A stretch of DNA of 64,000 nucleotides from Acidimicrobiales bacterium (GTDB lineage Bacteria; Actinomycetota; Acidimicrobiia; Acidimicrobiales; Aldehydirespiratoraceae), in the NCBI GenBank assembly GCA_965116195.1, contig OZ220491.1, forward strand, positions 336,042 to 400,041, written 5' to 3'. A program made the position numbers and the translations under genes. Each line of letters begins with the position of its first letter. Positions within the stretch are counted from its first letter, which is position 1. The notes below the pieces were generated by a model. That model did not search any database. It was not told the origin of the DNA and saw only the letters and a program-made list of their open reading frames with translations. Below, one piece after another: positions 8,536 through 43,783 of the stretch.

Positions 8536-8640
8536 CTGTTGCTCCTGTGTGTCACTTTGTGTGGGGTTGACGACAAGCGGCGGCTTGGCGAAGGGCTGGA
8601 AGATGTCGCATCTGTTGCTCCTGTGTATCAATTTGTGTGG
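8529..8640. repeat. 76-bp-period direct duplication of the esterase SD/start region
   Basis: GTCGCATCTGTTGCTCCTGTGT(G/A)TCA(C/A)TTTGTGTGG occurs at 8529-8564 and 8605-8640 with 2 mismatches. Confidence 0.9.
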
Positions 8641-8895
8641 TTTGCCGCCGACCGCGGCGTGTCGGTTGTCCGCGACCGCCACCCAGACAGGTACCAGCCC
8701 TCTTTGACCTGTTGCTGCCGACCGCAGTACCTCTGTTGATCGCGTACCCGCTGCAAGGTGGTCGTGATTGGTTGCGAAGGCTTCCACACACGATCACGCT
8801 GATGGTGGCAATTGGTGAGGGTAAGGCCGGTTCAGTGGCAATGGCGGCAACTTCGGCTACCCTTCATCATCCATCAAGTCCTCTTGATGGGCCAT

Positions 8896-8979
8896 GTCGG
8901 AGTGGCGGAATAGGAAGACGCGCTAGCTTGAGGGGCTAGTGCCCCAAGGGGCGTGGGGGTTCAAGTCCCCCCTCCGACA
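8896..8979 (+). tRNA. tRNA-Leu (anticodon GAG), class II with long variable arm
   Basis: Acceptor stem GTCGGAG/CTCCGAC. Anticodon stem CTAGC/GCTAG with loop TTGAGGG. Variable arm GCCCCAAGGGGC. T-arm GGGGG-TTCAAGT-CCCCC. The sequence closely resembles canonical bacterial tRNA-Leu. CCA is not encoded. Confidence 0.9.
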
Positions 8980-9449
8980 CACTCGTCAGCACGAACGTCA
9001 GATCCCGCAGAGACCTGCCTCCCTCGGATGCTGAACGATTGACAGCAAGTACCTCAGATGGACATCGCTGGACAAGGCCTTGGGTCTTGCTCTGTTGGCG
9101 CTCAACTGACGGAGTCGCCCGACTGTTTGACGGAGGGGTTGGGTTTCGTTGTGAGGGAACGCTAAGTGGAGCCGTGATGACGTTTGAGTTGATAACCGTG
9201 CGTTGTCATATCGGTGATGATCTTTCAGATAAATCTCGCGAATCTGTATGGTAGGACAATGGTCCTCCATACACATGCACGATCAACCCGTCCCGTTGGA
9301 CGATCGGTTGCTGGCGTGAGGTGTCGGCTGGGTCAACCCATGGAGTTCGCCCTTGGGGAAGGTCACGGCTGGGCGACTGCTGCGCGTGCATGGCGTGAAT
9401 TCCGAAGGTCCAGCGTGGAACGGATGTAGCGACAGGAGTCGGGGCCGAA

Positions 9450-10124
9450 GTGTTTCAGGACTACACCATGCGCATCGTTGCTGTCCGCGAGTGGCAGGGT
9501 GCCGCACTTGAGAAGCAACGCTACATGCTGCCCACATCGCCCGGGATCTACGCCTGGATGCTTGATCTTCGTCGGCCGCTTGCTGGACCAGACCAAGATG
9601 GTGATGTCTTGCTTGATCAGATCAATAACTCACTCCGCCCTAGCACCCCTCGCTGCTTCATGGGGAAGGTGCCACCGTACACGGCGGTGTCCCTACACGA
9701 TGACCTGCCACCTCTCACTAATGCAGCGGTTCGTCAAATCAAGGGGATCGCCGCAATGGAGGCCAACGCTGCTGAGTGGGCGTTGTTGTGTCCGACGATG
9801 TTTCAGCGCCCTCTTTACGTCGGCAAGGCGAAGAATCTCCAAAACCGACTGCGCAAACACCTTGCAGGCAAGACAAAGCTCGTATCGCATCTGGAGGCGG
9901 TCGGGCTAACTCTCAACGACTGCGCCATCATACTCGCCGAGGTGCAACCCGCTTCGCCGGACACCTCTGATGATGATGAGGAGGAGGAGGTGCAGGAGTC
10001 CTGGGAAGAGCTTGACGAGGAATCGCTCGCTGGGCTTGACCCGGTGACTCAGGTACTGTTGTCGGCAGCCGAGTCGCTAACGATTCGGATGAGTCGACCG
10101 TTACTCAACGAGAGAATGGATTGA
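9450..10124 (+). CDS. GIY-YIG nuclease-domain protein with large insertion and acidic tail
   Basis: SPGIYAW ... PLYVGKAKNLQNRLRKH ... AESLTIRMSRPLLNE matches the GIY / YxGxAxxLxxRxxxH / ExxxIxxxxPxxN elements. About 85 aa are inserted between the first two elements. An acidic run follows: DTSDDDEEEEVQESWEELDEE. The start could instead be ATG 9468. Confidence 0.6.
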   Translation: MFQDYTMRIVAVREWQGAALEKQRYMLPTSPGIYAWMLDLRRPLAGPDQDGDVLLDQINNSLRPSTPRCFMGKVPPYTAVSLHDDLPPLTNAAVRQIKGIAAMEANAAEWALLCPTMFQRPLYVGKAKNLQNRLRKHLAGKTKLVSHLEAVGLTLNDCAIILAEVQPASPDTSDDDEEEEVQESWEELDEESLAGLDPVTQVLLSAAESLTIRMSRPLLNERMD

Positions 10125-10126
10125 AT

Positions 10127-12196
10127 ATGAGCACACTTGACGTCCTCTCCGCTGCGACTGCTGACTACACATCTGACTACACATACCTCCGAGGAACCTA
10201 CGCGATCGGTCCAGAGAGACTCCCGTACTACGCCCTGACGATGTCAGTGGCAGATGCCGACAAGCACCTCGTCCTCGCTAGAGATGTCGTGTTTGATGTC
10301 ACGCGACCAGCCAAGTTGGAGGAGCTATTTCAACGGGACTTGGATGTTGACCGCGCTCGGACGGAGATACAGACGTATTTGAAGCGTCCGGAAAATCTGA
10401 AGTTCTTCAACTCTCTGACGGTGGTTTTGATGCCGATTGAGGAGGGAGATGCGCCGATTCCAATGGATCGGTATCCGAAGAGCGATCCCGGGGCTCCCGA
10501 CCCTCCGAGTAGCGAGGACCTCAATCGGATTGATGTCGGGCCCATCCAGATAAGGGAGACGAAAGGCGGTGATGTCGGCTTCATACGCTGGAACGTTGCG
10601 CGCATTAGTCCCGTCGTCATTGACGGGCAGCATCGGCTGTTTGCGCTTCGCGAGCTGCTCTCCGATAGGGCGTTCGTCAAGCACCTCAATCCTCATACCA
10701 CACGGATCCCAATCCTCGCTCTCGTGCTTGACGACCGTGTCGGGTACGAACCGCCGGAGGGCGGACCCTCCGGTGTCCTGTCTGCCTGTCGGGTGATCTT
10801 TGTTGACATCAACAAGAACGCAAAGCAGGTCGAAGGAGCGAGGCTGGCACTGCTCAATGATCGTTCGATCTCCGACTGTTCAATGCGGTCGCTACTAACG
10901 GACGAGATCGGAGTTGATTCCTCACCGGCAACCAATCGGTCAGGGAAGATCCCGCTAGCTCTCGTCGACTGGCACTCTGAGGTGACCAAGTTCGATCGGT
11001 CGCTCTACTTGTCGTCGGTTCTCGTGCTACGCGATGTTGTTGAGCAGTCCCTCGAACTAGAGCCACCGGATGCGTATGCTCACAATGAGTGGAGTTCGTA
11101 TCTCAATAGAATCGAGGCTCGTCTGACGCCAGACCCTGTTGACGGCTGGGACAGGCCAGCCGCAGACAAAAGGCTGCGGAACGCCGAGCGCGATGAACTT
11201 CCTTTCCATCTGACGCAGGTTGAGACGCGAGCAGCTGCGATGGGTTATGCCCGAGGGCCGGGATCCTTGGTCGTTAGCCCCCTTCTGCGCGCCGAGCCAT
11301 ACGCTCAGCTGGTTGATGCCTATCGGGAGGTGGGGTTGATTGATGGGAAGTTTGAACTCTGGCTTGGTCACGACCCGGAAGGCAAGAGAGCCTTTGAGCG
11401 TTATTTCGATGGCGAGGTCCCTGATGCAGACCTGGTCGCCCGACGGGTGAAGGATCGCTACCCGCTTGCGTTTCAGGTCGTCTTCCAGAAGGGCATTCTT
11501 GCATCATTGCAGATATTCGAGTCGGAGCGCGAGGAGTCACTTCTGCGGCTAACGGGCAAGGCTCACGGCGGTGAGAAGGCGACGCGGACGGCGTTGGAGG
11601 TGGCCTGGCTTGCGAAGTTCGACGAACGAATTGCCCCATGGTTGGCGGACTACAACTTCTGGCGTGGGTTCGGTGTTCGTCTTGATGGCACCATCGACTT
11701 CACGCAAGCTGCACCATCAGCTGTCGCAGGGTTTGTCGGCCTCAGTCTCATTGCTCCGTTCGCTGGCTGGCGAGCGCCGAGCGAGGCCATCCGGACTCCT
11801 GAACAGCGATTGTTCTCGTCACTGACCAAGGGCAATTCGATTGGTGAGAGCCTGACCATTGCTGACTATGGGGGAGCGAGTCAGAACCTGCAGTTTCAGG
11901 CCTCGTGCTGGCTCCACGAGCAACTGAGCTATGTCCGGCCAGGAGGCATGAGCACACTGTATGGGTATGTCGTTAGGCGCTTGGCTGGGCCCTGGGTGCA
12001 TTCGGTTGAACGATATCTTGATGCGGCCGCGAGGGCTGAAGCGTCCGGTCTGCTGGAGGGCGGTGACCGCTTTCGATATTTCCATGCGGTCGCGAGGGCC
12101 GAAGGCCTAGAGGTCAGCGACAACGACGCGAAGCGCCTGTTGGCGGCGGTGCACGGTGGGAGGAGGCTCGCGGCGATCAAGGCGGCCTTGAAGTGA
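10127..12196 (+). CDS. DGQHR-domain (DndB/ParB-Srx-like) protein, 689 aa
   Basis: Exact DGQHR motif (VVIDGQHRLFALREL) and a downstream FVDINKNAKQV element typical of the DndB-like family. The start (TTG 10121 or ATG 10127) overlaps or abuts the GIY-YIG stop codon. Confidence 0.75.
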   Translation: MSTLDVLSAATADYTSDYTYLRGTYAIGPERLPYYALTMSVADADKHLVLARDVVFDVTRPAKLEELFQRDLDVDRARTEIQTYLKRPENLKFFNSLTVVLMPIEEGDAPIPMDRYPKSDPGAPDPPSSEDLNRIDVGPIQIRETKGGDVGFIRWNVARISPVVIDGQHRLFALRELLSDRAFVKHLNPHTTRIPILALVLDDRVGYEPPEGGPSGVLSACRVIFVDINKNAKQVEGARLALLNDRSISDCSMRSLLTDEIGVDSSPATNRSGKIPLALVDWHSEVTKFDRSLYLSSVLVLRDVVEQSLELEPPDAYAHNEWSSYLNRIEARLTPDPVDGWDRPAADKRLRNAERDELPFHLTQVETRAAAMGYARGPGSLVVSPLLRAEPYAQLVDAYREVGLIDGKFELWLGHDPEGKRAFERYFDGEVPDADLVARRVKDRYPLAFQVVFQKGILASLQIFESEREESLLRLTGKAHGGEKATRTALEVAWLAKFDERIAPWLADYNFWRGFGVRLDGTIDFTQAAPSAVAGFVGLSLIAPFAGWRAPSEAIRTPEQRLFSSLTKGNSIGESLTIADYGGASQNLQFQASCWLHEQLSYVRPGGMSTLYGYVVRRLAGPWVHSVERYLDAAARAEASGLLEGGDRFRYFHAVARAEGLEVSDNDAKRLLAAVHGGRRLAAIKAALK

Positions 12197-12585
12197 TAAG
12201 CACACTGCCGTCAACTGGCTGGTTTTTCCGCCTTTCCAACTCCTCCTGAGTTTAGTATCCAAGCAGACTTGACAGAGACCAGTCCTTGTGTCTGAGGTAG
12301 CTTTCCTTGAGGGACAGGTCCCGTGGCATCCACCGCTGAGAGGCTGAGGAACCGTATCGTTTGTCATGGCCTCAACGGAGAACAAGGTGTGAGGGCTATG
12401 TCTTCAGGAGGCAAGAGGTGCGGCTATCTCGTGCGAGATTACGAGGCGCTTATGGCAGAGCCTCAAAGATCTGAAGAGTCCGGTCTGGCTTGGTGCGCCT
12501 CTAGTGGCCTGTCGTCCGTGAGGGTTGGAGGCTTGCGGCGGTTCCGTCGGTTGCGGCGGCGCGTCCAGTTCGGCGAGGTTGGATT

Positions 12586-13752
12586 GTGACCCCTATCTAT
12601 CTCGACTACAACGCGTCTGCTCCGATTGACCCCCGGGTTGCCGATGTCATGGCTGGTGTCATCGCCAGCGGCGTGGGCAATGCCTCTTCGGCGCACCCGT
12701 TCGGTTCGGCTCAGCGGGCTCGAGTTGGCACCGCTCGTGAGCAAGTCGCAGCGGCAGTCGGCGGGCGGCCCGGAGACGTTGTCTTCACGGCTGGTGCAAC
12801 GGAGGCAAACAACCTCGCTCTCCGAGGACTCGTTGATGCGCTATCATCAGCGCGGAGTCGAGTGTTGATCTCTGCGGTTGAGCATGCATCTGTGCGAGAG
12901 ACGGCGAGATGGCTTGCTGACGGGGGTCACGCAAAGGTTGATTTCATCCCTGTCACACCCGGCGGGTACGTTGACCTTGATGCGCTTGACGATCTTCTGG
13001 CCGATGATGTCTTGGTCGTTTCGGTCATGCTGGCCAACAGTGAGACGGGTGTGATCAATGACATTCGCGCAGTTGCTGAGCGAACTCATTCTCACGGTGC
13101 TCTCGTGCATACTGACGCAACACAAGCCGTCGGAAGGCTTGGCACTGACATGACGGAGATGCAAGCCGATCTGCTGTCGTTGAGCGGTCACAAGATCTGC
13201 GGACCGGGGGGCGTTGGAGCACTCCTTGCGACAGCACGATGCAGACGACTCATGCACCCGATTGTCTACGGTGGCGGACAGGAAAGCGGACTGCGTTCGG
13301 GCTCGCTCAATGTCGCCGGAACAGTGGGCTTTGGGGTGGCTGCAGAACTCGCAGCGAGCGAATGGAGCACCGACCACGCTCGGGTTTCTGCTCTCCGTGA
13401 TGAACTGGTCTCGCTCATCCAAGCTGAACTCGAGTCAGTAGAACAGAATGGAGATGTGAGCCGTCGGCTCCCGAACACAGCGAACCTCATGTTTCGCGGA
13501 GCCGATGCCGAAGCAGTCCTCGTCAACCTCTACCCGGTTGCAGTGTCGGCGGGCAGTGCCTGCAGCTCTGGGGCCCCTGAACCTTCGCCCGTCCTGCAAG
13601 CAATGGGTCTTGACCGTGCCAGCGCCGCTGCGTCGCTCCGGTTCAGTCTGGGCCGTTTCACCACTTCAGAGGAGGTACAGCAGGCAGCCACTCGCACCAT
13701 CGGCGCTGTTAATTTTGTGCGATCCATGAACCAGGACGACTCATGCGACTGA
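12586..13752 (+). CDS. sspA: cysteine desulfurase (class V aminotransferase; DndA/SspA-type)
   Basis: N-terminus PIYLDYNASAPIDPRV, PLP-lysine motif SLSGHKICGPGGVGAL, active-site cysteine loop SAGSACSSG. It is the first gene of an overlapping four-gene block. Confidence 0.8.
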   Translation: MTPIYLDYNASAPIDPRVADVMAGVIASGVGNASSAHPFGSAQRARVGTAREQVAAAVGGRPGDVVFTAGATEANNLALRGLVDALSSARSRVLISAVEHASVRETARWLADGGHAKVDFIPVTPGGYVDLDALDDLLADDVLVVSVMLANSETGVINDIRAVAERTHSHGALVHTDATQAVGRLGTDMTEMQADLLSLSGHKICGPGGVGALLATARCRRLMHPIVYGGGQESGLRSGSLNVAGTVGFGVAAELAASEWSTDHARVSALRDELVSLIQAELESVEQNGDVSRRLPNTANLMFRGADAEAVLVNLYPVAVSAGSACSSGAPEPSPVLQAMGLDRASAAASLRFSLGRFTTSEEVQQAATRTIGAVNFVRSMNQDDSCD

Positions 13753-14828
13753 CCGAAGCTGCGGAGCCGATCTTTGCTCGCCACGAGACCTTCCATCCTC
13801 GTTACGGCTGGTTCCGCAAGGCGTATGCCACTGCCGCAGCAAGCGAGCGCGGGTTTACTGCCGAAGACGCGCCGGTTGCTATTGGTGTCGGAAAAAACAT
13901 GGTGCGCTCAATCAAGTTTTGGGGTCAGGCGGCGAAGGTAATCACCTCCGATCCCGATTCTGCAAACAAACGGGCTCCCGACATGATCCCGACCGCGTTC
14001 GGACAAGCGTTGTTTGGTCCTGACGGGTGGGACCCTTACATGGAAGATCCAGGAACTGTCTGGCTTCTTCACTGGTTGTTGCTCGCACCTCCGTCGTGGC
14101 TGCCCGTGTGGTGGCTCGCATTTAATGAGTTGCATGCTGTTGACTTCAACGAAGACCTCTTGGCCAGCGTCATCACAACTCACATTGAATCTGCCAGTTC
14201 TTGGTCGTTGCCACACCCTGCCACGGTCACCAAAGATCTCTCCGTGCTCTTTCGTACCTACGCTCCGGCCGTCCACACGGCACGGGCCAGCTTTGAAGAC
14301 CTTCTGGACTGTCCGCTACGTGAACTGGGTTTGATCACCCGTTCGGCCGCAACTGGTAATCATCGGTTCGTGTTGGGTCCAAAGCCAACGCTCCCCGAAG
14401 AGATCGTGAACGTTGCTGTTCTGGACTATCTTGCACGCCGCCAACGGAGCGGGCAGACGGTCACACTGGCGCATCTCGCGAACGAGTCGGGCAGTCCTGG
14501 ACGAGCTTTCAGACTCTCCGAGCGCGACATTTATGAAGCATTGTCGCGAGAAGTAGAGAAAAGATCGTCTCTGGACCTTCTAGCACCGACCGGTGCGCAA
14601 CAACTCGCCTGGACCGACCCGCCTGCCCAAATTGCAGTCGAGATTCTCAACGAGTACTACGAGACGCAACCCGCAGAACCGGCGATCGGTCAACAAGGAG
14701 ATGAGCCCGCAGATCGCGATCTCCTGCCTGATCGCTCGCACGCTGTAATGAGACTCCTTGAGGCAAGTAGTCGTCACCACGACAGAAGTCTCCGGCGGTC
14801 GGATCAGCGACAGGAGCTAGGTGTATGA
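13743..14828 (+). CDS. sspB: DUF4007-type protein (SspB position)
   Basis: The N-terminus FARHETFHPRYGWFRKAY...GVGKNMVRSIKFWGQAAKVI is the hallmark of the DUF4007 family, which accompanies PAPS-reductase-like enzymes. It overlaps the upstream stop by 10 nt and the downstream start by ATGA. Confidence 0.7.
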   Translation: MRLTEAAEPIFARHETFHPRYGWFRKAYATAAASERGFTAEDAPVAIGVGKNMVRSIKFWGQAAKVITSDPDSANKRAPDMIPTAFGQALFGPDGWDPYMEDPGTVWLLHWLLLAPPSWLPVWWLAFNELHAVDFNEDLLASVITTHIESASSWSLPHPATVTKDLSVLFRTYAPAVHTARASFEDLLDCPLRELGLITRSAATGNHRFVLGPKPTLPEEIVNVAVLDYLARRQRSGQTVTLAHLANESGSPGRAFRLSERDIYEALSREVEKRSSLDLLAPTGAQQLAWTDPPAQIAVEILNEYYETQPAEPAIGQQGDEPADRDLLPDRSHAVMRLLEASSRHHDRSLRRSDQRQELGV

Positions 14829-17800
14829 CCTACCTTGCTGACCACATCGCAATCTCGCCGCGCTTCTCTCGTTCGGCGAACCTTGAGCGAGACGTAACTG
14901 CTGTCAATCCGCTTGAGGGTTACGTGGTTACGGCTCGCGCCGCAGATGTTGTGGAGCGTCTCGCAGGCCGCGCCGCGTCAACATCAGCGGGTGGGGCCTG
15001 GTCCATCACAGGACCTTACGGCTCTGGCAAGTCTTCGCTCGCGCTGCTGATTGACGGCGCTTTCGATGGGGCAGGCGCTATCCGTGACAAGGCGCTGGAA
15101 CTACTGAGCGTCGCAACTCCCGACTTGGCTTCAACAATCATCACCGCTCACGAGCGGCACGACACGCTTGAACTCGGGTTTTGCCGAGCTGTAGCGACTG
15201 CACACCGAGAACCAATCAGCCATACGGTTCTTCGCGCTCTTCATTCTGCTGTGATGCGCCGTTTCGGGAGGATCCCGCCGGTGTCGATGTTCAAGGCTGC
15301 ACCTGTGCTGGAAGATGCCTTGGCTGCCGCAGCGAGGGATGATCCTCGCCAGAATGGACCGTCCCCAGCAGCACTCCTAGCGGTAGCTCATTGTCTAGTC
15401 GAGTCTGCCCCTTTGTTGATTGTGGTTGACGAGTTTGGCAAGAACTTGGAGGCAATCGGTAATTCAGCAGCCGCCGACCCATACCTGCTTCAACAACTCG
15501 CGGAGGCAGGCCAAGGCGGTGGCGCTCCGATCTTCACGGTGACGCTTCAGCATCTTTCATTTGAGGACTACTTCACTACTGCAGATAGCTCGGAGCAGCG
15601 CGAGTGGGCCAAGGTGCAGGGTCGGTTTGAAGACGTTCCCTATGCTGACTCGCCGACGCAGACTCGAGCGCTTATCGCAACAGTTTTTGATCTCGACGAT
15701 GCGATTCATGCACGGGTTGATCACTGGGCCAAGAGGTTGGCGGCAGCCATGAGGCGTCTAGGCTTCAAAGATCTGGCAACGCCTGAAGCTATGGCAAAGT
15801 GCTTCCCCCTGCATCCCCTAGCCGTTGCCGTGCTTCCCGAACTGTGTAGCCGGTACGGGCAGAACGAGCGCACACTCTTTTCGTTTTTGTCAGGAAGCGA
15901 GACCACCGCTGTACCGGCGCTCCTCGGCGGAAGGAAACTTGGACGGGGTCCGTTACCTGTCGTTGGCTTGGCCGAGGTGTACGACTACTTCATCGCAGGA
16001 GGCGGCATTGCCAGTTCTTCAGGTGTCACTGCGAGTCGCTGGTTGGAGATTGCGACACGTCTGCGTGACACGCATGGACTCTCTGTTGCAGAGTCAGAGA
16101 TCGCGAAGTCAATCGCAGTTCTAAATCTTGTCGGAGCATCCGGGACAATTCGGGCATCAAGCATGGTGCTCAACTTGATATCCAAGCGCTCTGGACCGAT
16201 AGTTGAGAAACTTGAAGAACGAGGGCTGATCACGTATCGCGCCTTTGCTGACGAATACCGGATCTGGCACGGCAGCGATCTTGACATCCGCCATCTCGCC
16301 GAGCGTGCGGAGGCCGGTCTTGAGAAAGTGCCCTTAATCGATGTCTTGGCACGACTTGATACACCTACGCCCGTTATTGCTGCTCGACACTCAGCCCAAT
16401 ACGACACTCTCCGTGTGTTCACCCGCCGTTATGTGACGAGTTCGGAGAGCGTGATGCCGCCTGACCCGTTCTCCGTAGCGGACGGCGAGTTGTTGTTGGT
16501 CGTGGATGCGGACGGTAGTTGTCCGTCTATCGTTGCCAGCGATCTGAGCAAGCCGGTGGTAGCCGCAGTTCCAGCCACGATTGATCAACTGGAAGTCGCG
16601 GCTCGGAACTTGGCCGCATTCCATCAGGTTATAGAGATGCCTGAGGTCGCTAACGATTGGGTGGCCCGCAATGAACTAGGCGAGCAACTCGCCGAGGCCG
16701 AGGCGAGATTTCACGATGCCCTGATGTCAACTTTTGATCCACATCATTGCAAATGGTATCTTCTTACCAAAGATGGGCCGGAACCACTTCCATCGGGTCG
16801 TGGAACGGTGGCTCTCTCCGCAGCAGCGGATGCTGCGTATGGTTCGGTACCACGTATCGGTAACGAGATGATCAATCGTACGGACGTGACATCGCAGGGT
16901 GCAAAGGCGCGTCGTCTGCTGCTCGCAGGGATGATTGAGCGATCTGGTGAAGCAGATCTCGGCTTTGAGGGGTATGGCCCCGAAATGGCTATGTATCGTG
17001 CCGTCCTCCAACGATCCGGCTTGCATCGTCCCAGGGACGTGAACAGTGGTCCCGTCTTTGCTGAACCCAAAGACAAGTCGTGGCTTTCCGCTTGGCGGAC
17101 CCTGATGACAGAATTCACGCGGGCAAAGACTCATCGGGTCAATCTCAATGACATCTATGGGATGCTGATGTCCCCACCCATCGGTATGAAGGCCGCAGTA
17201 GTTCCTGTGTTTGCCACTGCCGGATTACTCGCTTATCACGATGAGATCGCAATCTATGAGCACGGAACGTTCAAAGCGACGCTTGAGGTCGACATGTCGG
17301 AACGGATGGTGAAGAACCCGGGCCATTTTGAGATCAAGCACTATGCAATCGCGGAAGGTGCCCGCCTAGATGTAATTGAAGCGCTTGCAGCGGAACTTGG
17401 AGTCACAAAGCGTTTGCGAAAGCACAGAGTGGGGAACATCCTCGCGATCGTGGGTCATGTCATTGGCGTGGTGCAGCAACTCGACAACTTCTGTCGTGTG
17501 ACCAACAGTTTGTCAGGAGCAGCGCTCGCGGTGAGAGAGGTTTTGACCACCGCTGTTGAACCGGATGAATTGCTTTTTCAAGCGCTTCCTGAAGCGCTCG
17601 GCTTCCCACAGATTCTTGCATCGGAACCGTACCCGCAACGCGCGGATTATGCACGAGCGTTGGTTCAAGTGGTTGAGGAACTTGGTGGACGGACACGTCG
17701 ATTGAAGGAGGAACTCCGCGATCTGGTGTTTGCACATGCCAATGAGTCGAGACGACGAGCTATCAGTGGTCAGGCATCAGTGATTGAGAACGAGATCGTT

Positions 17801-18307
17801 GACCCAGAAATCCGCTCCTTTGTTCTAGCGATGGCGACTGACGCGTTCGAGGACGATCTTGAGTGGGTCAACAACATCGCGACCGTGGTTGCAAAGCGCG
17901 CCGTTGCTGAGTGGTCAGATGACGATCGCGCCAGATTCGAGTTTGAGTTACCGGCCAAGATGTCTGCCTTCAGACGCTTGTTGGCTCTCCATATAGAGCG
18001 TCGGACTGCTGACGGTGAGTCCTTTGATGCCTTGCGCGTCACTTTTACGCGGTCTGATGGCAAGGAGGACTACCTCGTGCTGGCGCTTGATGACCACATA
18101 CGCAATGCAGTTTGTGGCCCTGTAGATGAGGTCGTGCAGCGACTCACGGAGGTGCTGGGCTCTGAAGTCAAAGCCCGAGAGGCTATCCTCGCCACCTTGG
18201 CAGAACACGTGCTACCTGCTGTCATGCCAACCGCTGTCGCCCCTGTCACACCCATCTGCGACAATGAGATCATCAAAATCAGGACAGCAAAGGCGACTCA
18301 TGGTTGA
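14825..18307 (+). CDS. sspC: large P-loop ATPase (SspC position), 1160 aa
   Basis: Walker A ITGPYGSGKSSLALL and Walker B-like LLIVVDEFGKNLE. Its size and its position between DUF4007 and the PP-loop enzyme fit SspC. Confidence 0.65.
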   Translation: MTYLADHIAISPRFSRSANLERDVTAVNPLEGYVVTARAADVVERLAGRAASTSAGGAWSITGPYGSGKSSLALLIDGAFDGAGAIRDKALELLSVATPDLASTIITAHERHDTLELGFCRAVATAHREPISHTVLRALHSAVMRRFGRIPPVSMFKAAPVLEDALAAAARDDPRQNGPSPAALLAVAHCLVESAPLLIVVDEFGKNLEAIGNSAAADPYLLQQLAEAGQGGGAPIFTVTLQHLSFEDYFTTADSSEQREWAKVQGRFEDVPYADSPTQTRALIATVFDLDDAIHARVDHWAKRLAAAMRRLGFKDLATPEAMAKCFPLHPLAVAVLPELCSRYGQNERTLFSFLSGSETTAVPALLGGRKLGRGPLPVVGLAEVYDYFIAGGGIASSSGVTASRWLEIATRLRDTHGLSVAESEIAKSIAVLNLVGASGTIRASSMVLNLISKRSGPIVEKLEERGLITYRAFADEYRIWHGSDLDIRHLAERAEAGLEKVPLIDVLARLDTPTPVIAARHSAQYDTLRVFTRRYVTSSESVMPPDPFSVADGELLLVVDADGSCPSIVASDLSKPVVAAVPATIDQLEVAARNLAAFHQVIEMPEVANDWVARNELGEQLAEAEARFHDALMSTFDPHHCKWYLLTKDGPEPLPSGRGTVALSAAADAAYGSVPRIGNEMINRTDVTSQGAKARRLLLAGMIERSGEADLGFEGYGPEMAMYRAVLQRSGLHRPRDVNSGPVFAEPKDKSWLSAWRTLMTEFTRAKTHRVNLNDIYGMLMSPPIGMKAAVVPVFATAGLLAYHDEIAIYEHGTFKATLEVDMSERMVKNPGHFEIKHYAIAEGARLDVIEALAAELGVTKRLRKHRVGNILAIVGHVIGVVQQLDNFCRVTNSLSGAALAVREVLTTAVEPDELLFQALPEALGFPQILASEPYPQRADYARALVQVVEELGGRTRRLKEELRDLVFAHANESRRRAISGQASVIENEIVDPEIRSFVLAMATDAFEDDLEWVNNIATVVAKRAVAEWSDDDRARFEFELPAKMSAFRRLLALHIERRTADGESFDALRVTFTRSDGKEDYLVLALDDHIRNAVCGPVDEVVQRLTEVLGSEVKAREAILATLAEHVLPAVMPTAVAPVTPICDNEIIKIRTAKATHG

Positions 18308-19142
18308 CACCCGGCACATATGTGGCATCTCGGGCGGGAAGGACTCTTCGGCCTTGGCGGTATACCTGCGAGATCGTGTACCCGAGATGGAGTACTTCTT
18401 CTGCGATACAGGTGCCGAACTCCCCGAGACCTACGAGTACATGACCCGCCTTGAGGTTACTCTGGGCAAGCCCATTGAGCGACTCAACGAACGGCGCGGA
18501 TTCGATCACTGGTTCGAGGTATATCGCGGAGCGCTTCCTTCCCCCCAGATGCGTTGGTGCACCAAGCAGATGAAGATCTATCCGATCGAGGAATGGGTCG
18601 CTGACGACGCGGTTGTGTCATATGTAGCCATCCGCGCTGATGAGGCAAACAGGAAAGGTTACATCTCCACTAAGCCAAATATCAAGTCTGTCTTCCCGTT
18701 CATTGAGGACGGAATCGACCACAGTGGTGTCATGCGGATACTTGATGATGCAGGCATCGGATTGCCGTCCTACTACGACTGGCGAACGCGATCTGGCTGC
18801 TACTTCTGTTTTTACCAACGCAAAGCAGAATGGGTCGGACTCGCAGACAGGCACCCTGACCTGTTTGAGCGAGCGGTTGCCATTGAGCAGAAGGTCCTCC
18901 AAGATGCCGGTGTTGACAGAGATGCAGACTTCAGCGATAGAGCCATGTCGGGCCGACAGTACACGTGGACTGGGAACGAGACCCTCGTCGAGTTGATCAC
19001 ACGCAGGGATGAGATCCTCGAGCGACACGAGGCCGCACTGCAACGTGAGGCACGGCAGAGACCCAACCGACCTCTTGTTGAGGCATTGGCGGGCGTTCTG
19101 GACGACGAGAGCGACGACATCTGTACGGTTTGCGCGCTATAG
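18300..19142 (+). CDS. sspD: PAPS-reductase-like PP-loop ATP pyrophosphatase (DndC/SspD-type)
   Basis: The PP-loop SGGKDS (ICGISGGKDSSALAVY) lies near the N-terminus when ATG 18300 is used. That start overlaps the upstream stop as ATGGTTGA. Conserved Cys residues follow (RSGCYFCF, CTVCAL). Confidence 0.8.
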   Translation: MVDTRHICGISGGKDSSALAVYLRDRVPEMEYFFCDTGAELPETYEYMTRLEVTLGKPIERLNERRGFDHWFEVYRGALPSPQMRWCTKQMKIYPIEEWVADDAVVSYVAIRADEANRKGYISTKPNIKSVFPFIEDGIDHSGVMRILDDAGIGLPSYYDWRTRSGCYFCFYQRKAEWVGLADRHPDLFERAVAIEQKVLQDAGVDRDADFSDRAMSGRQYTWTGNETLVELITRRDEILERHEAALQREARQRPNRPLVEALAGVLDDESDDICTVCAL

Positions 19143-19157: not shown

Positions 19158-20177
19158 GTGGATGAGGTCGGTGTCGTCATCAAGGGGTCGGTCGCTTTGA
19201 GCGAGAAACTTGTAAGGCATCTGGCTCGGATGGTCGTTTCCGAAGCGGATGACGTCGGGCTTGTGGATCTTGGGGAGATAGTCGCTGGGGTGGCCAGGGA
19301 TGCCCTACCGGTAACGGATGACCTTGTTGACGCACTAAGCCTCACACGCGTTGGCCGCCACTTGGCACTGCGAGACACCAAGCGTGTACGCGCGAAACTG
19401 GCTCTGATGGAGATTGGTCGCCCAGCGACCAAAGAGGAGATAGAGGAGGTCGCAGACCAGAAAGGATTTGCTATCACAAGTGTAGGGACCGCGCTGTCCA
19501 GTATCGATTCGATCGCACGTGCAGACAAGTCCCGCTGGGGACTTATTGAGTGGATTGATGATGTCTATGAGGGCATCTCTGCTGAGATTCAACAGCGAAT
19601 CAATGAGCACAACGGTGCAGTGCCATTGACATTCCTGCTCAAGGATATTTCTGAGCGGTTTGGCGTAAACGAGGGTAGCATTCGGTCATATGTAGCAACA
19701 AGACAGTTCAACGTGGCGGACGGCATGGTAAGCCTCGCTAGCGCGAGCAACTACAACTACCGGCCGGTGGAGGATGTCGCAACCCGTAACAAGCATGGCG
19801 AACTTTGTTGGGATTTTCCGGTCAAGGCTCAGTACTTGAAGGGGATCTCGATTGATGGCTTTCCTCCTGAGCTCGCGCGGGTACTTGGCTGTGGTCCAAA
19901 TGACCGCCGTGAGGTGCGCGTGGCCTCGCCCGATGGATGCGATCCCATAAGCGTCATCTGGAGGTTGTCCTCCGTCAGCGGTGCTGCGCAAATTGGTAAG
20001 GTTCGGGACGCTCTTCAAAGAGCAGGTGCAACTGCTGGTCGCTACGCTCGAATCGTGATTGCCGACGAAGGTTGCGCAGTTCGGTTTGAACTTGTTGAGA
20101 ATGCTCAGCCTTCTACGGAGTTGTTGACCGCGGACGATCTCCTCGCACGAATGAAAAACCGCCGACGGATCAGCTAG
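19158..20177 (+). CDS. hypothetical protein with HARE-HTH-like winged-helix segment
   Basis: GTG start 15 nt after the sspD stop, behind AGGAGG. The segment IGRPATKEEIEEVADQKGFAITSVGTALSSIDSIARADKSRWGLIEW follows the HARE-HTH pattern ending G-W-L-x-W. A second HTH-like stretch reads FLLKDISERFGVNEGSIRSYV. Confidence 0.45.
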   Translation: MDEVGVVIKGSVALSEKLVRHLARMVVSEADDVGLVDLGEIVAGVARDALPVTDDLVDALSLTRVGRHLALRDTKRVRAKLALMEIGRPATKEEIEEVADQKGFAITSVGTALSSIDSIARADKSRWGLIEWIDDVYEGISAEIQQRINEHNGAVPLTFLLKDISERFGVNEGSIRSYVATRQFNVADGMVSLASASNYNYRPVEDVATRNKHGELCWDFPVKAQYLKGISIDGFPPELARVLGCGPNDRREVRVASPDGCDPISVIWRLSSVSGAAQIGKVRDALQRAGATAGRYARIVIADEGCAVRFELVENAQPSTELLTADDLLARMKNRRRIS

Positions 20178-22397
20178 ATGCTTGCCGATGTCTCAACGCT
20201 GCGACGCAGTTTCTACAAGCTTCCGGAGGACCCGTTCGCGCGTGAGATACTCATTCCGTCGTTCCAAGAAGCGATCTCAGTACGCGGTGTGTTCGGATGG
20301 TTCAGCTCAAGTTGGATATCGAGGCTCGCTCCTGGGCTAGCGATGTACCTCCAACATCCCGAGACCCGAACCATTGAGATGACCGTCTCGCCGAAATTGT
20401 TTGAGTCAGAGCGAAAGGTTATAGAGCGGGCTGTCCACCTAACAGATGAGGAATCTGCCCATCGTATTGAGCATGTTTTTACTAATGGACGCGATGATGT
20501 TGATGCGCTCGCTGCTCACGCGCTCGACTGCCTCGGATGGATGCTGGCGACTGGACAACTCCGACTTCGGATCGCTGTACCTGAGCCTGGTTCCAACTTC
20601 CACCCGAAGATGTGGGGCTTTGGTGACGACCGCGATTGTGTAATTGCGAACGGCTCTGGGAATGCAACTGGACGAGGGATCGTTGCTGGTGTTGAGCAAA
20701 TGACTGTCACGGTGAGTTGGGACGATCACGACAACGAGGTCTTCGAACGTGCGGAGGCGGCTTTGGAAGATTGGCTGAATGGGAGGAGCATTGGCATCAA
20801 CCGCATCCTAGAACTTCCCGAGGCCATAGAAGCTCGGATCATTGAGACAGCCCCGGATATCGCACCAACCGAATCCGACTACTTTGACGCGGTTGAAGCG
20901 GACGGCAACCCCGGCTGGGCGGCGGATCCGCACGAGTCGCTTCGCCGTCGTTTCGCAAGTCCCGTGGTAGCTGCTCCGCCGGTTCTGCAGATTCCTTCGT
21001 GGCTCAGATGGCGCGATGGTGACTACGGCTTCCAAGGTGAGGCCGTTGACGCCTGGGAGCAGTCGGAGCCATCCGAGCGCGGCATTCTCGAGATGGCAAC
21101 CGGTGCAGGCAAAACGCTGACGGCACTCGTCTGTGCGACACGCCTCCAGCAAAGGCATCCGGATCGTCCTCTTCTGATGGTGGTGTCGGTACCGTCGCTA
21201 ACGCTCGTGGCTCAATGGCGCACGGAAATCGCGAAATTTGGGCTTCGCGCCGTAGCCCCCTCCCTCGAATCAAGCACCGATGAGGCACTCAGCCGAGCGC
21301 TCCGTCAACTACGGCTTGGTGGAACAGTGGCGCTCGTTGTTACCAACCTGATGCTCTGCGATCCGCGTTTCCAGGCTACCTTGCGACAAGGCGGCGATGC
21401 TGCAACGCTCCTTCTCATAGCGGATGAAGCTCATGGCCTCGGTGCTGACGGCTTTGTCAAGAACAAGCCGAATTTCTTCGAAAAGCGACTGGCGTTGACT
21501 GCTACTCCCATTCGGCAATACGACCCGGACGGTACGGAAGAGATATTCGCCTTCTTCGGAAAACCTGTATACACGTTCGGGCTTGGGCAGGCGATTGGAT
21601 TCTGTCTGACCCCGTATGAGTACTACGTGCATGCTGCGACTCTCGCCACGGACGAGCTTCATGAGTTTGTCGCGTTGACCAAACGTATCGGCGCGGCGAT
21701 CAGACAAGATGACGATGAACGTCGTAATGCGCTCTCGATCCAACGCCGGAGGATCATTGAGACGGCTGAGGCCAAGTACTCGTTGCTCCGCGCTGTACTT
21801 GAGATTCGACAGATTCACAATCTATCTCATGCATTCGTGTATGCCTCAGCCAAGGATCCAGAACAGTACGACCGCATCGCAGCGCTTCTAGACGATCTTG
21901 GGATCAGGTGGGCAGGGATCACTCAGGCAACTTCGTCAAGTACCATTCGACATGCGTTCGAGTCGTTCGCAGACGGAGGCTTCCAGGTTTTGCTTGCCAA
22001 AAAACTCCTAGATGAAGGAGTCGATGTTCCAAGTACCAGGGAGGCGTTCATTGTAGCGTCGTCGTCTGTGGAGCGCGAGTGGATTCAGCGACGTGGCCGA
22101 GTGCTCCGCCAACATCCTGACAAGCCATTCGCGATCATTCACGACTTCCTTGCCCTTCCCCCGGCATCTCATCTAGATGAGGTCTCGTCGGCGCGGTCAA
22201 TCATCGACACAGAACTCAAACGCGCCTACGCCTTCGCGCAGTATGCCAGCAATCCGACTGGACCTAGCGGAGCGTTTGCGAGCATAACCGAGATTCGTGA
22301 GGCGTACTGGCCTTCGGGTTCGACAGTATCAGGCAACTTGCGATACCCTGGGGAGCTATTCGTCGCGCCGGGCACCCCCCGAGGAGTACCATGGTAA
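20178..22397 (+). CDS. PLD/HKD-family nuclease domain fused to SF2 (DEAH) helicase
   Basis: The ATG directly follows the upstream TAG. It has a single HKD-like motif HPKMWGFGDDRDCVIANGSGN. Helicase motifs are I MATGAGKT, II LLIADEAHG, III LTATP and VI QRRGRVLR. Confidence 0.8.
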   Translation: MLADVSTLRRSFYKLPEDPFAREILIPSFQEAISVRGVFGWFSSSWISRLAPGLAMYLQHPETRTIEMTVSPKLFESERKVIERAVHLTDEESAHRIEHVFTNGRDDVDALAAHALDCLGWMLATGQLRLRIAVPEPGSNFHPKMWGFGDDRDCVIANGSGNATGRGIVAGVEQMTVTVSWDDHDNEVFERAEAALEDWLNGRSIGINRILELPEAIEARIIETAPDIAPTESDYFDAVEADGNPGWAADPHESLRRRFASPVVAAPPVLQIPSWLRWRDGDYGFQGEAVDAWEQSEPSERGILEMATGAGKTLTALVCATRLQQRHPDRPLLMVVSVPSLTLVAQWRTEIAKFGLRAVAPSLESSTDEALSRALRQLRLGGTVALVVTNLMLCDPRFQATLRQGGDAATLLLIADEAHGLGADGFVKNKPNFFEKRLALTATPIRQYDPDGTEEIFAFFGKPVYTFGLGQAIGFCLTPYEYYVHAATLATDELHEFVALTKRIGAAIRQDDDERRNALSIQRRRIIETAEAKYSLLRAVLEIRQIHNLSHAFVYASAKDPEQYDRIAALLDDLGIRWAGITQATSSSTIRHAFESFADGGFQVLLAKKLLDEGVDVPSTREAFIVASSSVEREWIQRRGRVLRQHPDKPFAIIHDFLALPPASHLDEVSSARSIIDTELKRAYAFAQYASNPTGPSGAFASITEIREAYWPSGSTVSGNLRYPGELFVAPGTPRGVPW

Positions 22398-22594
22398 GTA
22401 ACTTCGAGAGGATCCTTGAGGAAATCACCAAACATGCCAGCGATGTATCTGAGGACTTTGACGCGGAGACCTTGATCGGATTGTCTATGAAACTCGTTGA
22501 CGAAGAAGACAAGCATAGGACGAAGAAGGTGAACATCAATCAGATCTTTGCGAACTTGATTGAGCAGGCAGCGAACGCAGAGGGGCCGAGATGA
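22391..22594 (+). CDS. small acidic helical protein (67 aa)
   Basis: It is coupled on both sides: ATGGTAA overlaps the helicase stop and ATGA overlaps the next start. It has no recognisable motif, and support comes only from this operon geometry. Confidence 0.45.
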   Translation: MVSNFERILEEITKHASDVSEDFDAETLIGLSMKLVDEEDKHRTKKVNINQIFANLIEQAANAEGPR

Positions 22595-24786
22595 TTCGGT
22601 TCACCCGCATCCAGATCGAGAACTTCGTTTGTTTTGAGAAACTCGTCATAGAGCCTTCTGTGGATCCTGAACGCCCGCTCACGGTCATCCGAGCAGAGAA
22701 CGCCTCGGGGAAGACGACATTTCTACGCGCAGTCCGCTGGGGGATGTACGGAGAGCAAGGGCTTCCGGGTAGCCAGACTAGCTTTGGAGTTCAACCAACC
22801 TTCTGGAAACCCACGACATCCGGTATTGAGACCCGGGTTGTGATTGAGTTTACCTCGGACGGTTCGACTCGCCATGATATAAGTTCCGGAACTGCTGATA
22901 CTCGATACCGACTTGTACGGACGGTGCGCACGATTGCACGCGATCAGGAACCTGGTTACCAGCGGATAAACGAAAACGCTCAACTGATGGTGCGGAGTCC
23001 CAGTGGGGCGTGGGAGGAATATACATATGGTGTGGACCACGTGATTGAGTTGCTTCTCCCCTGGGAGCTACGAGACTTCTTCGTGATGGACGCTGACGAG
23101 GCTTCAGAATACGTCGGAGGCAGCGAGAGCATGACAATCAGTCGAAGCGAAGTTGACGAGAAGACGACCTACGCGATCAACGCTTTACTCGGTATCAGAG
23201 TCTTTCAAGATGCTGCCGGCCGGGTTGCTGAGGCTGAGCGGTTGTTCGGCAAGAAGGCCACCAAAGCCATCGGTGACTCCGACCTCAATGAGATGCAGGC
23301 GAAACTAGACGAGGTCCGATGCCAGATCAGAGAGTTGGAGGACAAGAAAGGGAAGAGTGAGCGTGAACTCGCCGACCTAAAGGACAATCGCGCTCAGCAA
23401 CGTGATAGGCTAGATGAGACACTCAAAGGCGTAGGCGCACTTGAAGAACTCAGGAAGCGACTCGCTCAAAGCGATCGTGACATAAGTCGAACTACCAAGG
23501 ACTATGAGTCCGCCTTGGCATCGCTCGGAGGTGTGCTTGAAGCACCGTCGCTTTTCGCAAAACTGGCGCACTCTCAGATAACGGCCGTCGTCAGTTTTCT
23601 ACAACCAATGCACGACAGCGGACAGATCCCACAACGTCACCTCGGGTTCGTTCGTGGACTACTTGAGTCTGGAAACTGCATTTGCGGTGAGGACCTTGCA
23701 CAACAGGGTCCCCGCCGTAGTCATGTCGAAGATCAACTGGCTGCCTCTGAGTCGGCTGCTGAGCACGCGAACTACCTCGGGCACGTGTTCGAGGTAGGTC
23801 GAGAGCTTTTGCACCTTGCCGACAACGCAGATTGGTCAGACGAAGCAGACCGTGCGGAAGCAAGGCTCGCAGAAACCGAACAGCGATTGTCTGACCTTCG
23901 TACCGAGCGAGAGGACATTGATAAGAAACTAGACTCTATCGATGAGTCGGAAATTTCGTCAATCCACGAGGAGATCAAAGCCCTCGACATTCAGATCGAC
24001 CGAAGCACCGCAGAGAACTCAGAGTATGATAACCGTCTTCCAAGTCTTCAGAGTGAAGCAGATTCTCTCAACAAAAAGATCCACAAACGGCAGGACGGAG
24101 AGAATGCTGCGAAGGGTCACCGCCGAGCCGAAGACCTAGCGGGTGTAATCCATCGTATCTTGACGAACGCCTGTCAGACCATCCGAAACGTCCAAGTCAA
24201 GGAACTCTCCAATGAGATGAACCGGTTGTTCGCAACGATGGTAGATAACGTCACCGAGGATGAAACCGATGTCAGTCAGACTGGAAAGGAAACAATTCGG
24301 ACAATCACGCAAGTAGGAGTACGCCCCACCTCTGGCGACAACTTCGAGATATTCGCCATCAACAATTACGGACGTGACAAGCCGCATATCGAGATCAACG
24401 GGGCTAGTCGTCGGGTGATTGCCTTGGCCTTCGTGCTCGCACTTTGTCACGAGTCAAGGACCCGTGCTCCACTAGTTGCGGACTCCTTACTAAATATGAT
24501 GTCAGGTGCGGTACGTCGCAACACTCTTGCTGCGACGGCCGAAGAGTCCGGTCAACCGATCCTGCTTCTGACTGGTGCCGACCTTGATGCTGAGAGTGAG
24601 GTTGAGACCGTTGCAAGCAAGGGCGGAGCGACATACACGCTTACGGCACAGTGGCACAAAGAGGTCGTGAACCTTACGGACTCGAGGGCAATCTCCCTTG
24701 TCTGCGTATGCGGACCTCGGCAGTACTGCGATGTGTGCGAACGGGTTGGGCAAGCAAACCGGCCTGAATGGTCAAAGCGAAGGTAG
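22591..24786 (+). CDS. DndD/SMC-Rad50-like coiled-coil ABC ATPase
   Basis: N-terminus FTRIQIENFVCFE...AENASGKTTFLRAVRWGMYGE (Walker A). A long charged coiled-coil middle contains a CxC element (GNCICGEDL). The C-terminus has a signature-like NGASRRVIALAFVLAL, a Walker B/D-loop PLVADSLLNMM, QPILLLTGADLD, and a terminal CVCGPRQYCDVC. Confidence 0.75.
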   Translation: MIRFTRIQIENFVCFEKLVIEPSVDPERPLTVIRAENASGKTTFLRAVRWGMYGEQGLPGSQTSFGVQPTFWKPTTSGIETRVVIEFTSDGSTRHDISSGTADTRYRLVRTVRTIARDQEPGYQRINENAQLMVRSPSGAWEEYTYGVDHVIELLLPWELRDFFVMDADEASEYVGGSESMTISRSEVDEKTTYAINALLGIRVFQDAAGRVAEAERLFGKKATKAIGDSDLNEMQAKLDEVRCQIRELEDKKGKSERELADLKDNRAQQRDRLDETLKGVGALEELRKRLAQSDRDISRTTKDYESALASLGGVLEAPSLFAKLAHSQITAVVSFLQPMHDSGQIPQRHLGFVRGLLESGNCICGEDLAQQGPRRSHVEDQLAASESAAEHANYLGHVFEVGRELLHLADNADWSDEADRAEARLAETEQRLSDLRTEREDIDKKLDSIDESEISSIHEEIKALDIQIDRSTAENSEYDNRLPSLQSEADSLNKKIHKRQDGENAAKGHRRAEDLAGVIHRILTNACQTIRNVQVKELSNEMNRLFATMVDNVTEDETDVSQTGKETIRTITQVGVRPTSGDNFEIFAINNYGRDKPHIEINGASRRVIALAFVLALCHESRTRAPLVADSLLNMMSGAVRRNTLAATAEESGQPILLLTGADLDAESEVETVASKGGATYTLTAQWHKEVVNLTDSRAISLVCVCGPRQYCDVCERVGQANRPEWSKRR

Positions 24787-24793
24787 GTATCAA

Positions 24794-27709: not shown

Positions 27710-27957
27710 TGGTTGTTGAGGCGTGGGGTGTTGTGGGTTGGTTTGGGTACGGGGAACTGTTTGACCGGGTGGAGGTGGCTGCGTGATGGTTGTTGAGGCG
27801 TGGGGTGTTGTGGGTTGGTTTGGGTACGGGGAACTGTTTGACCGGGTGGAGGTGGCTGCGTGACTTCGCTGGCTGTGGCGGCATCAGCACTTTGCGGGCG
27901 ATCTCGTCCTCGCGGCCGGTGGGTGGAGGTGGCTGCGTGACTTCGCTGGCTGTTGCG
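27682..27957. repeat. 77-bp-period tandem array (about 3.6 units) spanning the FabH stop and the DUF1295 start
   Basis: The core CCGGGTGGAGGTGGCTGCGTGA recurs at 27688, 27765 and 27842, and as GGGTGGAGGTGGCTGCGTGA at 27921. Units 1-2 are near-identical. Units 3-4 share GTGACTTCGCTGGCTGT(G/T)GCGG. Confidence 0.95.
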
Positions 27958-28752: not shown

Positions 28753-28762
28753 TCATCGCGTC

Positions 28763-43770: not shown

Positions 43771-43783
43771 TCGGCGCGACCTG

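Follow-up and report, generated by a model that had tools for sequence, protein, structure and literature searches.

The stretch described here, 64,000 nucleotides (nt) of contig OZ220491.1 from an Acidimicrobiales bacterium, is referred to throughout as the window. It carries a phosphorothioate (PT) modification operon of the Ssp type and, upstream of that operon on the same strand, two adjoining genes (the pair), one for a predicted GIY-YIG nuclease and one for a large DGQHR protein. The features of the pair are given below; nuclease residues are numbered either from GTG 9450 (224 amino acids, aa) or from ATG 9468 (218 aa).

9450-10124, forward strand: gene for a predicted GIY-YIG/URI-type endonuclease, 224 aa from GTG 9450 or 218 aa from ATG 9468
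9543-9560, forward strand: 'GIY' strand PGIYAW, with the catalytic Tyr34 at 9549-9551
9564-9815, forward strand: insert of ∼ 84 aa between the GIY and YIG strands, helices and a beta-hairpin
9813-9860, forward strand: 'YIG' strand and helix LYVGKAKNLQNRLRKH, with Tyr123, Gly125, Arg133 and His137
9948-10037, forward strand: acidic, probably disordered internal loop, about residues 167-196 of 224
10071-10073, forward strand: catalytic Glu208 in the AESLTIR helix (E202 in the 218-aa numbering), invariant
10127-12196, forward strand: gene for the large DGQHR protein (DndB branch of ParB/Srx), 689 aa from ATG
10175-10915, forward strand: N-terminal alpha/beta domain homologous to DGQHR/DndB, residues ∼ 17-263
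10331-10336, 10622-10636 and 10799-10813, forward strand: QR, DGQHR and FxxxN motifs of that domain
11018-12193, forward strand: family-specific all-alpha C-terminal half, residues ∼ 298-689, ∼ 20 helices modelled at high confidence

The nuclease reading frame ends with TGA at 10122-10124 and the ATG of the DGQHR frame follows at 10127, only 2 nt away, as described in the original prediction, which had been made from the sequence alone. An alternative start, TTG 10121, is available to the DGQHR frame; ATG 10127 matches the N-termini of its homologues. For the nuclease, the gene caller placed the start at ATG 9468, and GTG 9450 is supported because the leader it adds, MFQDYT, is kept in homologues. 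Since homologues of both proteins span phyla, we regard both open reading frames (ORFs) as real genes rather than chance ORFs.

The nuclease and the large DGQHR protein

Conservation was read from related loci. One genome per GTDB species was scanned, which gave 116 loci (individual loci carry L numbers), and 80 of these were fetched with 10-kb flanks; iterated hidden Markov models recovered 71 partner nucleases in the 80. In an alignment of 28 diverse partners (15-65% identity) the sole invariant columns are Tyr28, Tyr117, Gly119, Arg127, His131 and Glu202 in the 218-aa numbering (Tyr34, Tyr123, Gly125, Arg133, His137 and Glu208 in the 224-aa protein), which is the GIY-YIG catalytic set. The first tyrosine, invariant in both nuclease alignments, lies in PGIYAW, which aligns to PGVYIF of UvrC. 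In the window nuclease 88 residues separate this strand from LYVGKAKNLQNRLRKH, which aligns to PIYIGKAKRLSNRLRSYL of UvrC and in which Y117, G119, R127 and H131 (218-aa numbering) do not vary; the motif can be read straight from the sequence, YVGKAKNLQNRLRKH carrying Tyr123, Arg133 and His137. The glutamate belongs to a later segment, AESLTIRMSRPLLN, which comes after the acidic stretch, and sits in a modelled helix (192-209 in the 218-aa numbering). The catalytic set thus holds in a proper alignment, a point on which the original prediction had left room for doubt.

The profile searches that had been proposed lead the nuclease family to GIY-YIG/UvrC and the N-terminal domain of the DGQHR protein to DndB, with no match to DUF262. 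Against the PDB, the nuclease family profile finds the N-terminal GIY-YIG domain of UvrC first (1ycz and related entries, E = 1.1e-4, both motifs aligned), with Eco29kI and endonuclease II as weak matches. The Pfam GIY-YIG model is matched by 25 of 28 family members at E ≤ 0.1, the best at 2.9e-5. Judged by its sequence, ORF 9450-10124 is a GIY-YIG/URI-type nuclease with every catalytic residue intact, and it is likely to be catalytically active.

An AlphaFold2 model of the nuclease has a mean predicted local distance difference test (pLDDT) score of 81.6 and places strands at 26-32, 117-121 and 152-158 and helices at 124-132 and 192-209. This order agrees with the beta-beta-alpha-beta-alpha core of GIY-YIG domains, but 84 aa stand between the signature strands where the usual distance is ∼ 10-11. 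The insert of ∼ 84-88 aa, modelled at pLDDT 72-90, is common to all 71 partners; the corresponding position in UvrC has ∼ 10 residues. The insertion noticed in the original prediction is therefore real, but it is a property of the family and not peculiar to the window gene. The acidic 'tail' described there proved to be an internal loop of low confidence (pLDDT 48-67) ahead of the helix with the catalytic glutamate; its length differs by clade, for the Poribacteria clade lacks it and Streptomyces has it greatly extended. The conserved C-terminal asparagine of the GIY-YIG superfamily is present in the actinobacterial clade of the window (PLLNxxMD), and other clades have F/V-x-R-x-G in its place. 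When the nuclease profile was scored against 1.84 billion cluster representatives (E ≤ 1e-10), the family comprised 544 clusters at 50% identity. The best 150 relatives are all stand-alone proteins of 125-318 aa, and a fusion of nuclease and DGQHR protein in one polypeptide was not found among them.

In the large DGQHR protein the name-giving pentapeptide stands in VVIDGQHRL, and Q69-R70, D166-R170, F225 and N229 are invariant in 115 sequences. The QR, DGQHR and FxxxN motifs define the DGQHR domain (PMC4619093), and DndB-like ParB folds bind ATP and GTP (PMC12704722). The AlphaFold2 model (pLDDT 91.4, predicted template modelling score 0.91) shows the N-terminal alpha/beta domain followed by the all-alpha half of ∼ 390 aa, in which Y392, K442 and a VVFQK motif (F453, Q454) are conserved. 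The 193 homologues, nearly all 600-730 aa long, come from Actinomycetota, Poribacteria, Planctomycetota, Verrucomicrobiota, Cyanobacteria, Acidobacteriota, Myxococcota and Proteobacteria; the closest belong to Candidatus Poriferisodalis (Acidimicrobiia), and the family is present in at least 116 species-representative genomes. On the DndB model of Pfam (PF14072) the window protein scores 24.9 bits against a cut-off of 29.1, and on TIGR03187 40.8 against 58.85, in both cases over the first half of the model only; its relatives score 25-53 bits and likewise fall below the cut-offs. With 689 aa it is about twice as long as canonical DndB (350-360 aa; the TIGR03233 model has 355 positions), as the original prediction had stated, and 'oversized DndB-like' is an accurate description of it.

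Coupling of the pair and its phosphorothioate context

In 71 of the 77 assessable loci (71/80 in total), which represent at least eight phyla, the DGQHR gene is immediately preceded by the nuclease gene in the same orientation; of the nine exceptions, three are truncated by the end of a contig. Stop and start codons are mostly 0-25 nt apart. Pairwise distances of the two proteins correlate closely (r = 0.95, Mantel p = 0.001, n = 65). These data support the conclusion that the nuclease and DGQHR genes are a functional unit, inherited and diverging together. The fallback offered with the original prediction was that a DndB-like repressor and an unrelated nuclease are neighbours by chance. Such a reading can point to the single window, in which the genes merely abut, and to the scores of both proteins below curated family cut-offs. 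It is refuted by the adjacency and the co-divergence, and the 544 clusters of stand-alone GIY proteins keep their full-length architecture; we regard it as exceedingly improbable.

A few loci are arranged differently. In L021 (Fimbriiglobus, 8582-9463) the place of GIY is taken by an HNH_2 gene that overlaps the DGQHR start, and L020 (Akkermansiaceae, 15072-17101) has an additional HNH endonuclease and then a 399-aa DndB-like protein, so that the pairing of a nuclease with a ParB-like protein recurs. Displacement of GIY by a non-homologous nuclease was considered for L021 and set aside as weak; the case is confined to one locus, which has no sspD, and HNH genes of this family are also found elsewhere among the related loci. 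Nostocales have a third kind of DGQHR protein, 526-543 aa (TIGR03187, 199 bits), encoded directly upstream of GIY or, in loci that have no GIY, of the large DGQHR gene (L070 7563-9179; also L031, L035, L044, L062, L067, L072 and L074-L080).

Of the 80 loci, 69 have PT-modification genes within 10 kb, 36 of these loci being Ssp-type and 33 Dnd-type, and four of the 11 remaining loci are short contigs. The pair thus occurs mostly with PT genes, and none of the findings named with the original prediction as counting against it emerged in the computational analysis; that Dnd-type and Pbe-like linkage would be as frequent as Ssp linkage had not been foreseen. The tree of the pair splits cleanly into Dnd-linked and Ssp-linked clades.

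The usual layout is ssp(A)BCD, then GIY, then DGQHR. The pair begins no more than 70 nt after the sspD stop in 20 of the 33 loci with a same-strand sspD and a scored partner (sspD is on the opposite strand in L005), and the slot just 3' of sspD that it takes is the slot of sspE. In about 17 loci a superfamily 2 (SF2) helicase follows the pair directly; it is homologous to the helicase part of PbeA and has no HKD domain. In Cyanobacteria dndC, dndD and dndE diverge from an operon of GIY and the large DGQHR gene, in some cases headed by a gene for a 532-aa DGQHR protein, and this operon converges on genes for a nuclease-less helicase, a CxC ATPase and dnd_assoc_4. Verrucomicrobia have PbeA, GIY, DGQHR, PbeC and PbeD, or GIY, DGQHR, PbeA and PbeC, and in Paraburkholderia (L084) GIY, DGQHR, dndB, dndC, dndD and dndE form one operon. 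The idea that GIY replaces the HKD nuclease missing from helicase-only PbeA is suggested by these layouts but does not hold strictly, as Verrucomicrobia and the window have full PbeA plus GIY; the Rivularia loci, with a helicase-only gene and no GIY, also count against it. In plasmids (PLSDB) there was no full-length relative, only weak N-terminal matches to cyanobacterial DndB.

Several other genes were observed beside the pair. In several loci of Poribacteria and Actinomycetota the neighbour is a GHKL-type ATPase of 580-820 aa (HATPase_c_3; L013 11812-14259; L016 11983-14439; L009 12001-13794, reverse strand; L004; L008; L036), and pAgo-like Piwi proteins are encoded in L039 and L012. In Streptomyces mutabilis (L081-L083) the pair stands at the edge of an island together with a conserved 495-aa protein and an N6-methyltransferase, with no ssp or dnd genes within 10 kb; the left flank of this island differs between genomes.

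In the window the pair precedes sspA, with a 390-nt spacer between, and this layout is atypical. The original prediction had described the pair as lying upstream of the ssp operon, which is true of the window, whereas relatives normally have the pair after sspD; in the closest relative, L001, it comes after Pbe-like genes, unlike the window. Neighbouring genes were assigned with the protein models of PADLOC-DB v2 (E ≤ 0.01).

8896-8980, forward strand: tRNA-Leu(GAG), found by ARAGORN, directly upstream of the pair and at the left edge of the PT island
12586-13752, forward strand: sspA, cysteine desulfurase (PADLOC SspA, 413 bits)
13743-14828, forward strand: sspB, DUF4007 (PADLOC SspB, 329 bits; Pfam DUF4007, 267 bits)
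14825-18307, forward strand: sspC, ATPase (PADLOC SspC, 980 bits)
18300-19142, forward strand: sspD, PAPS-reductase-like (PADLOC SspD, 366 bits)
19158-20177, forward strand: 5'-truncated ORF of 339 aa between sspD and the PbeA-like gene
20178-22397, forward strand: PbeA-like HKD nuclease and SF2 helicase, dnd_restrict_1 (PADLOC PbeA, 515 bits; TIGR04095, 326 bits)
22591-24786, forward strand: PbeC-like CxC ABC/SMC ATPase (PADLOC PbeC, 140 bits), CxC motif GNCICGE
24698-25270, forward strand: ORF of 190 aa in the PbeD position

The strong PADLOC matches of these neighbours identify the locus as an Ssp modification module, a Pbe-like module and the pair. The HKD motif of the PbeA-like protein can be read as FHPKMWGFGD...GSGNAT. 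ORF 19158-20177 aligns to residues 367-695 of its L001 homologue at 61% identity, that is, to the C-terminal half only; full-length relatives have 695-980 aa, and those in L001, L002 and L011 contain a Sigma70_r4 helix-turn-helix by Pfam. The 190-aa ORF, kept only in L001 and L002, matches no Pfam, NCBIfam or PADLOC model and has no similarity to dnd_assoc_4.

To the left of the tRNA gene lie housekeeping genes (ABC transporter, esterase), and the PT genes look like a tRNA-adjacent genomic island; the GC content drops to 0.51 at 24-26 kb, near its right end. A direct repeat of the tRNA-Leu 3' end that might delimit the island in the manner of an attachment site was sought and not found, and a promoter and terminator scan of 8900-12700 was uninformative. 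Elsewhere in the window, 40303-51740 holds a BREX-like cluster with a BrxC-like ATPase (weak matches), a PglX-type methyltransferase, PglZ and a BrxL Lon-like protein that is unusually fused, at its C-terminus, to a Ser/Thr protein kinase domain (Pkinase, 101 bits). On the reverse strand (36940-38853), the C-terminus of a C-5 cytosine DNA methylase matches the 4Fe-4S binding motif of endonuclease III. Tandem repeats of 77 nt (3-4 copies, 27670-27960) lie just upstream of and extend into ORF 27790-28752, and repeats of 72 nt (∼ 6 copies, corresponding to 24-aa repeats; 29260-29691) lie between the two Pfam domains encoded by the photolyase ORF 28619-30694.

A possible restriction arm of phosphorothioate systems

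We propose, at what we would put as even chances, that the pair is a two-protein nuclease module which serves PT systems as an accessory restriction or effector arm. The N-terminal ParB/Srx-type DGQHR domain would act as a nucleoside triphosphate (NTP)-dependent switch on DNA, and the private all-alpha half of the same protein would contact DNA or the partner. By reading the PT status of DNA the DGQHR protein would license its partner enzyme, and the UvrC-like GIY-YIG protein, probably a nickase, would cut invading DNA. Where a PbeA-like SF2 helicase lacking HKD follows the pair, this helicase would supply translocation, and the nuclease activity that it lacks may come in trans from the GIY-YIG protein. 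We infer that the two proteins may form a physical complex, that the DGQHR protein may hydrolyse NTP and sense PT, and that the module may cut either PT-free DNA or DNA in a PT-dependent way and may act against phage. Its logic would be analogous to that of SspE, GmrSD and DndI. We favour an effector because the nuclease site and the ParB-type nucleotide pocket are strictly kept over deep divergence, because the pair occupies an sspE-like position, and because it is embedded among restriction-type genes (PbeA-like helicases, CxC ATPases).

Several observations weigh against this proposal. About seven loci, Streptomyces mutabilis among them, have the pair without PT genes within 10 kb, and in four Rivularia or Anabaena loci a second DGQHR protein (526-532 aa) occupies the GIY slot, leaving the large DGQHR protein without GIY. 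Other nucleases stand beside the pair in some loci, such as the PbeA with HKD in the window and the SspE-like gene in L023. The clean split into Dnd-linked and Ssp-linked clades also fits a partner tuned to the modification machinery and not to its product. On the side of the proteins, the window nuclease scores 21.6 bits on the Pfam GIY-YIG model (PF01541), just below the cut-off of 22.6, with only the YIG-Arg segment aligned, and GIY-YIG folds do not usually have 84-88 aa inserted between their two signature strands. At E ≤ 0.001 Foldseek matched neither AlphaFold2 model to a PDB entry, and a sequence search of the PDB with the DGQHR family profile gave nothing either. The fold assignments consequently rest on sequence motifs and secondary structure. 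Neither protein matches any family of PADLOC-DB v2 at the threshold given above. Finally, the pair has DGQHR where the DUF262 domain of SspE has DGQQR, and DUF262 (PF03235) gave no hit at E ≤ 0.01, with the SspE-like control from L023 at 110 bits.

Some of these points suit an alternative in which the pair works on the side of modification, the DGQHR protein tuning or assisting PT installation and the GIY protein nicking DNA for sulfur insertion or removing excess PT. The DGQHR protein could then resemble DndB, or else DpdB, whose ATPase activity is reportedly needed for DNA modification by DpdA. The homology of the N-terminal domain to DndB, which is a regulator (PMC4507180), is in keeping with such a role, as are a phylogeny that tracks the type of modification system and the usual position of the pair, co-oriented with and abutting sspD or ahead of dndBCDE. 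In several of these operons, however, a canonical DndB beside the pair already fills the role of regulator, and in the SspABCD systems studied to date DNA modification proceeds in the absence of a pair of this kind (PMC8092258). A repressor, moreover, needs no catalytically intact nuclease under selection, and the pair is also found inside Pbe-like restriction operons, next to helicase-only PbeA homologues and, in about seven loci, with no PT genes near. We consider this alternative unlikely.

The pair might instead be a backup suicide effector, in which the GIY-YIG DNase is an indiscriminate toxin checked by the NTP switch of the DGQHR protein and freed when PT modification is inhibited or the nucleotide pool is disturbed. 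A backup suicide role has been proposed by the Aravind laboratory for URI/GIY-YIG DNases at Dnd boundaries, together with a nucleotide-targeting role for ParB-type DndB (PMC10853773). The pair does stand at an island edge in the window and in L001, it coexists with other restriction modules, and it can occur without adjacent PT genes. Most Ssp loci, on the other hand, have it in an operon with sspD and not at the periphery, and the PT link in 69 of 80 loci and the clade split suggest PT specificity rather than a generic toxin. A suicide effector of this kind seems to us distinctly improbable.

An accessory restriction arm remains our preferred reading, and it can be extended. Tentatively, and at somewhat less than even chances, the dyad may be a widespread and so far unrecognized class of PT-coupled restriction effector. 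In it, an NTP switch of the DndB branch of ParB/Srx, equipped with a new helical domain, would license a UvrC-like GIY-YIG nickase, in some loci together with a PbeA-type helicase that has no nuclease. The dyad would then be the restriction partner so far missing from some of the orphan sspBCD and dndBCDE clusters of Actinomycetota, Poribacteria, Planctomycetota, Acidobacteriota, Verrucomicrobiota and Cyanobacteria. No known restriction partner accompanies 84% of sspBCD clusters (PMC8092258), and many dnd clusters lack dndFGH; the role of such orphan PT systems is the question on which the dyad bears. It offers them a conserved and uncurated candidate partner that links Ssp, Dnd and Pbe-like modules.

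Relation to known systems

We found no paper that describes the dyad, and neither protein is represented as a family of its own by a model of Pfam, NCBIfam or PADLOC. The nearest prior statement is a general note on URI DNases near Dnd loci (PMC10853773). Those DNases belong to the same superfamily and have the same kind of neighbourhood as the pair; that work does not describe a constant pairing with a large DGQHR protein, or the presence of such a dyad in Ssp loci. UvrC offers the best sequence match to the nuclease family in its N-terminal domain, but lacks the insert.

DndB is an ATP-modulated repressor of dndBCDE transcription. Its DGQHR domain is homologous to the N-terminal domain of the large protein (hhalign probability 98%, E = 3e-13, residues 20-263 against DndB 10-188), it too is found at PT loci, and NCBI names the Streptomyces relatives of the large protein 'DndB'. 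That name is wrong for the large protein. The C-termini of the two are unrelated, and the large protein has an insert of ∼ 50 aa in its ParB domain. On the DndB model TIGR03233 (cut-off 328 bits) the window protein gives no hit and its relatives 0-17 bits (P0012, 16.8), compared with 492 bits for a canonical control; the canonical DndB references were taken from related loci. DndB heads dndBCDE as the single DGQHR gene, whereas the window has ssp genes and no dnd genes, and the large protein, by contrast, has an obligatory nuclease partner. A canonical DndB is encoded beside the pair in at least seven loci (L029, L036, L054, L060, L065, L071 and L084). Because it falls below the cut-offs for DndB, DGQHR and DUF262, shares only the N-terminal ∼ 250 aa, and occurs in the same operons as canonical DndB, the large DGQHR protein is neither DndB nor SspE.

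SspE, GmrSD and BrxU join a DUF262 ParB-like NTPase to a DUF1524 HNH nuclease and thus combine, like the pair, a ParB/Srx NTP-binding module with a nuclease. The DGQHR and DUF262 domains have QR, DGQxR and FxxxN motifs in common, and GmrS and GmrD also exist as separate polypeptides (PMC4619093). SspE is a PT-sensing NTPase-nuclease (PMC12065111), and its gene lies directly downstream of sspD, the position that the pair shares in Ssp-type loci. Its nuclease is HNH and fused, while that of the pair is GIY-YIG and on a separate polypeptide; it lacks the C-terminal domain of ∼ 390 aa that is unique to the large DGQHR protein, and the pair also accompanies Dnd-type systems. The idea of a two-polypeptide analogue of SspE, put forward in the original prediction, is supported in part: the pair is a coupled and PT-linked unit without DUF262 and its DGQQR motif, and it might also sense PT and work in the manner of SspE. 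Nor is the pair a strict substitute for SspE, since in L023 an SspE-like gene follows it directly. A test for mutual exclusion with SspE was uninformative, an SspE-like gene being present in 2 of the 80 loci and the background being only ∼ 7% (PMC8092258).

PbeA/dnd_restrict_1, the HKD nuclease and SF2 helicase of CxC-ABC systems, is a PT-associated module of restriction type that is often found next to the pair. The pair has no helicase of its own and matches no PADLOC Pbe model, and the helicase without HKD is present in ∼ 17 Ssp-type and ∼ 15 cyanobacterial loci. DndI, a PT-sensing NTPase-nuclease (PMC11662687), and DndFGH/SspFGH are likewise accessory modules, which recognize self DNA by its PT marks and leave it intact (PMC11662687, PMC8092258); they differ in domain composition, and no sequence relation to the pair was detected. 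As a presumed ParB-superfamily NTP switch and a nuclease attached to PT modification, the pair is of an already known kind. Its novelty lies in the branch of the ParB superfamily and the fold of the nuclease, in the division between two polypeptides, in the C-terminal domain of the large protein and in an occurrence that extends across Ssp, Dnd and Pbe contexts; a GIY-YIG fold paired with a ParB/Srx nucleotide switch has not previously been reported in such a role.

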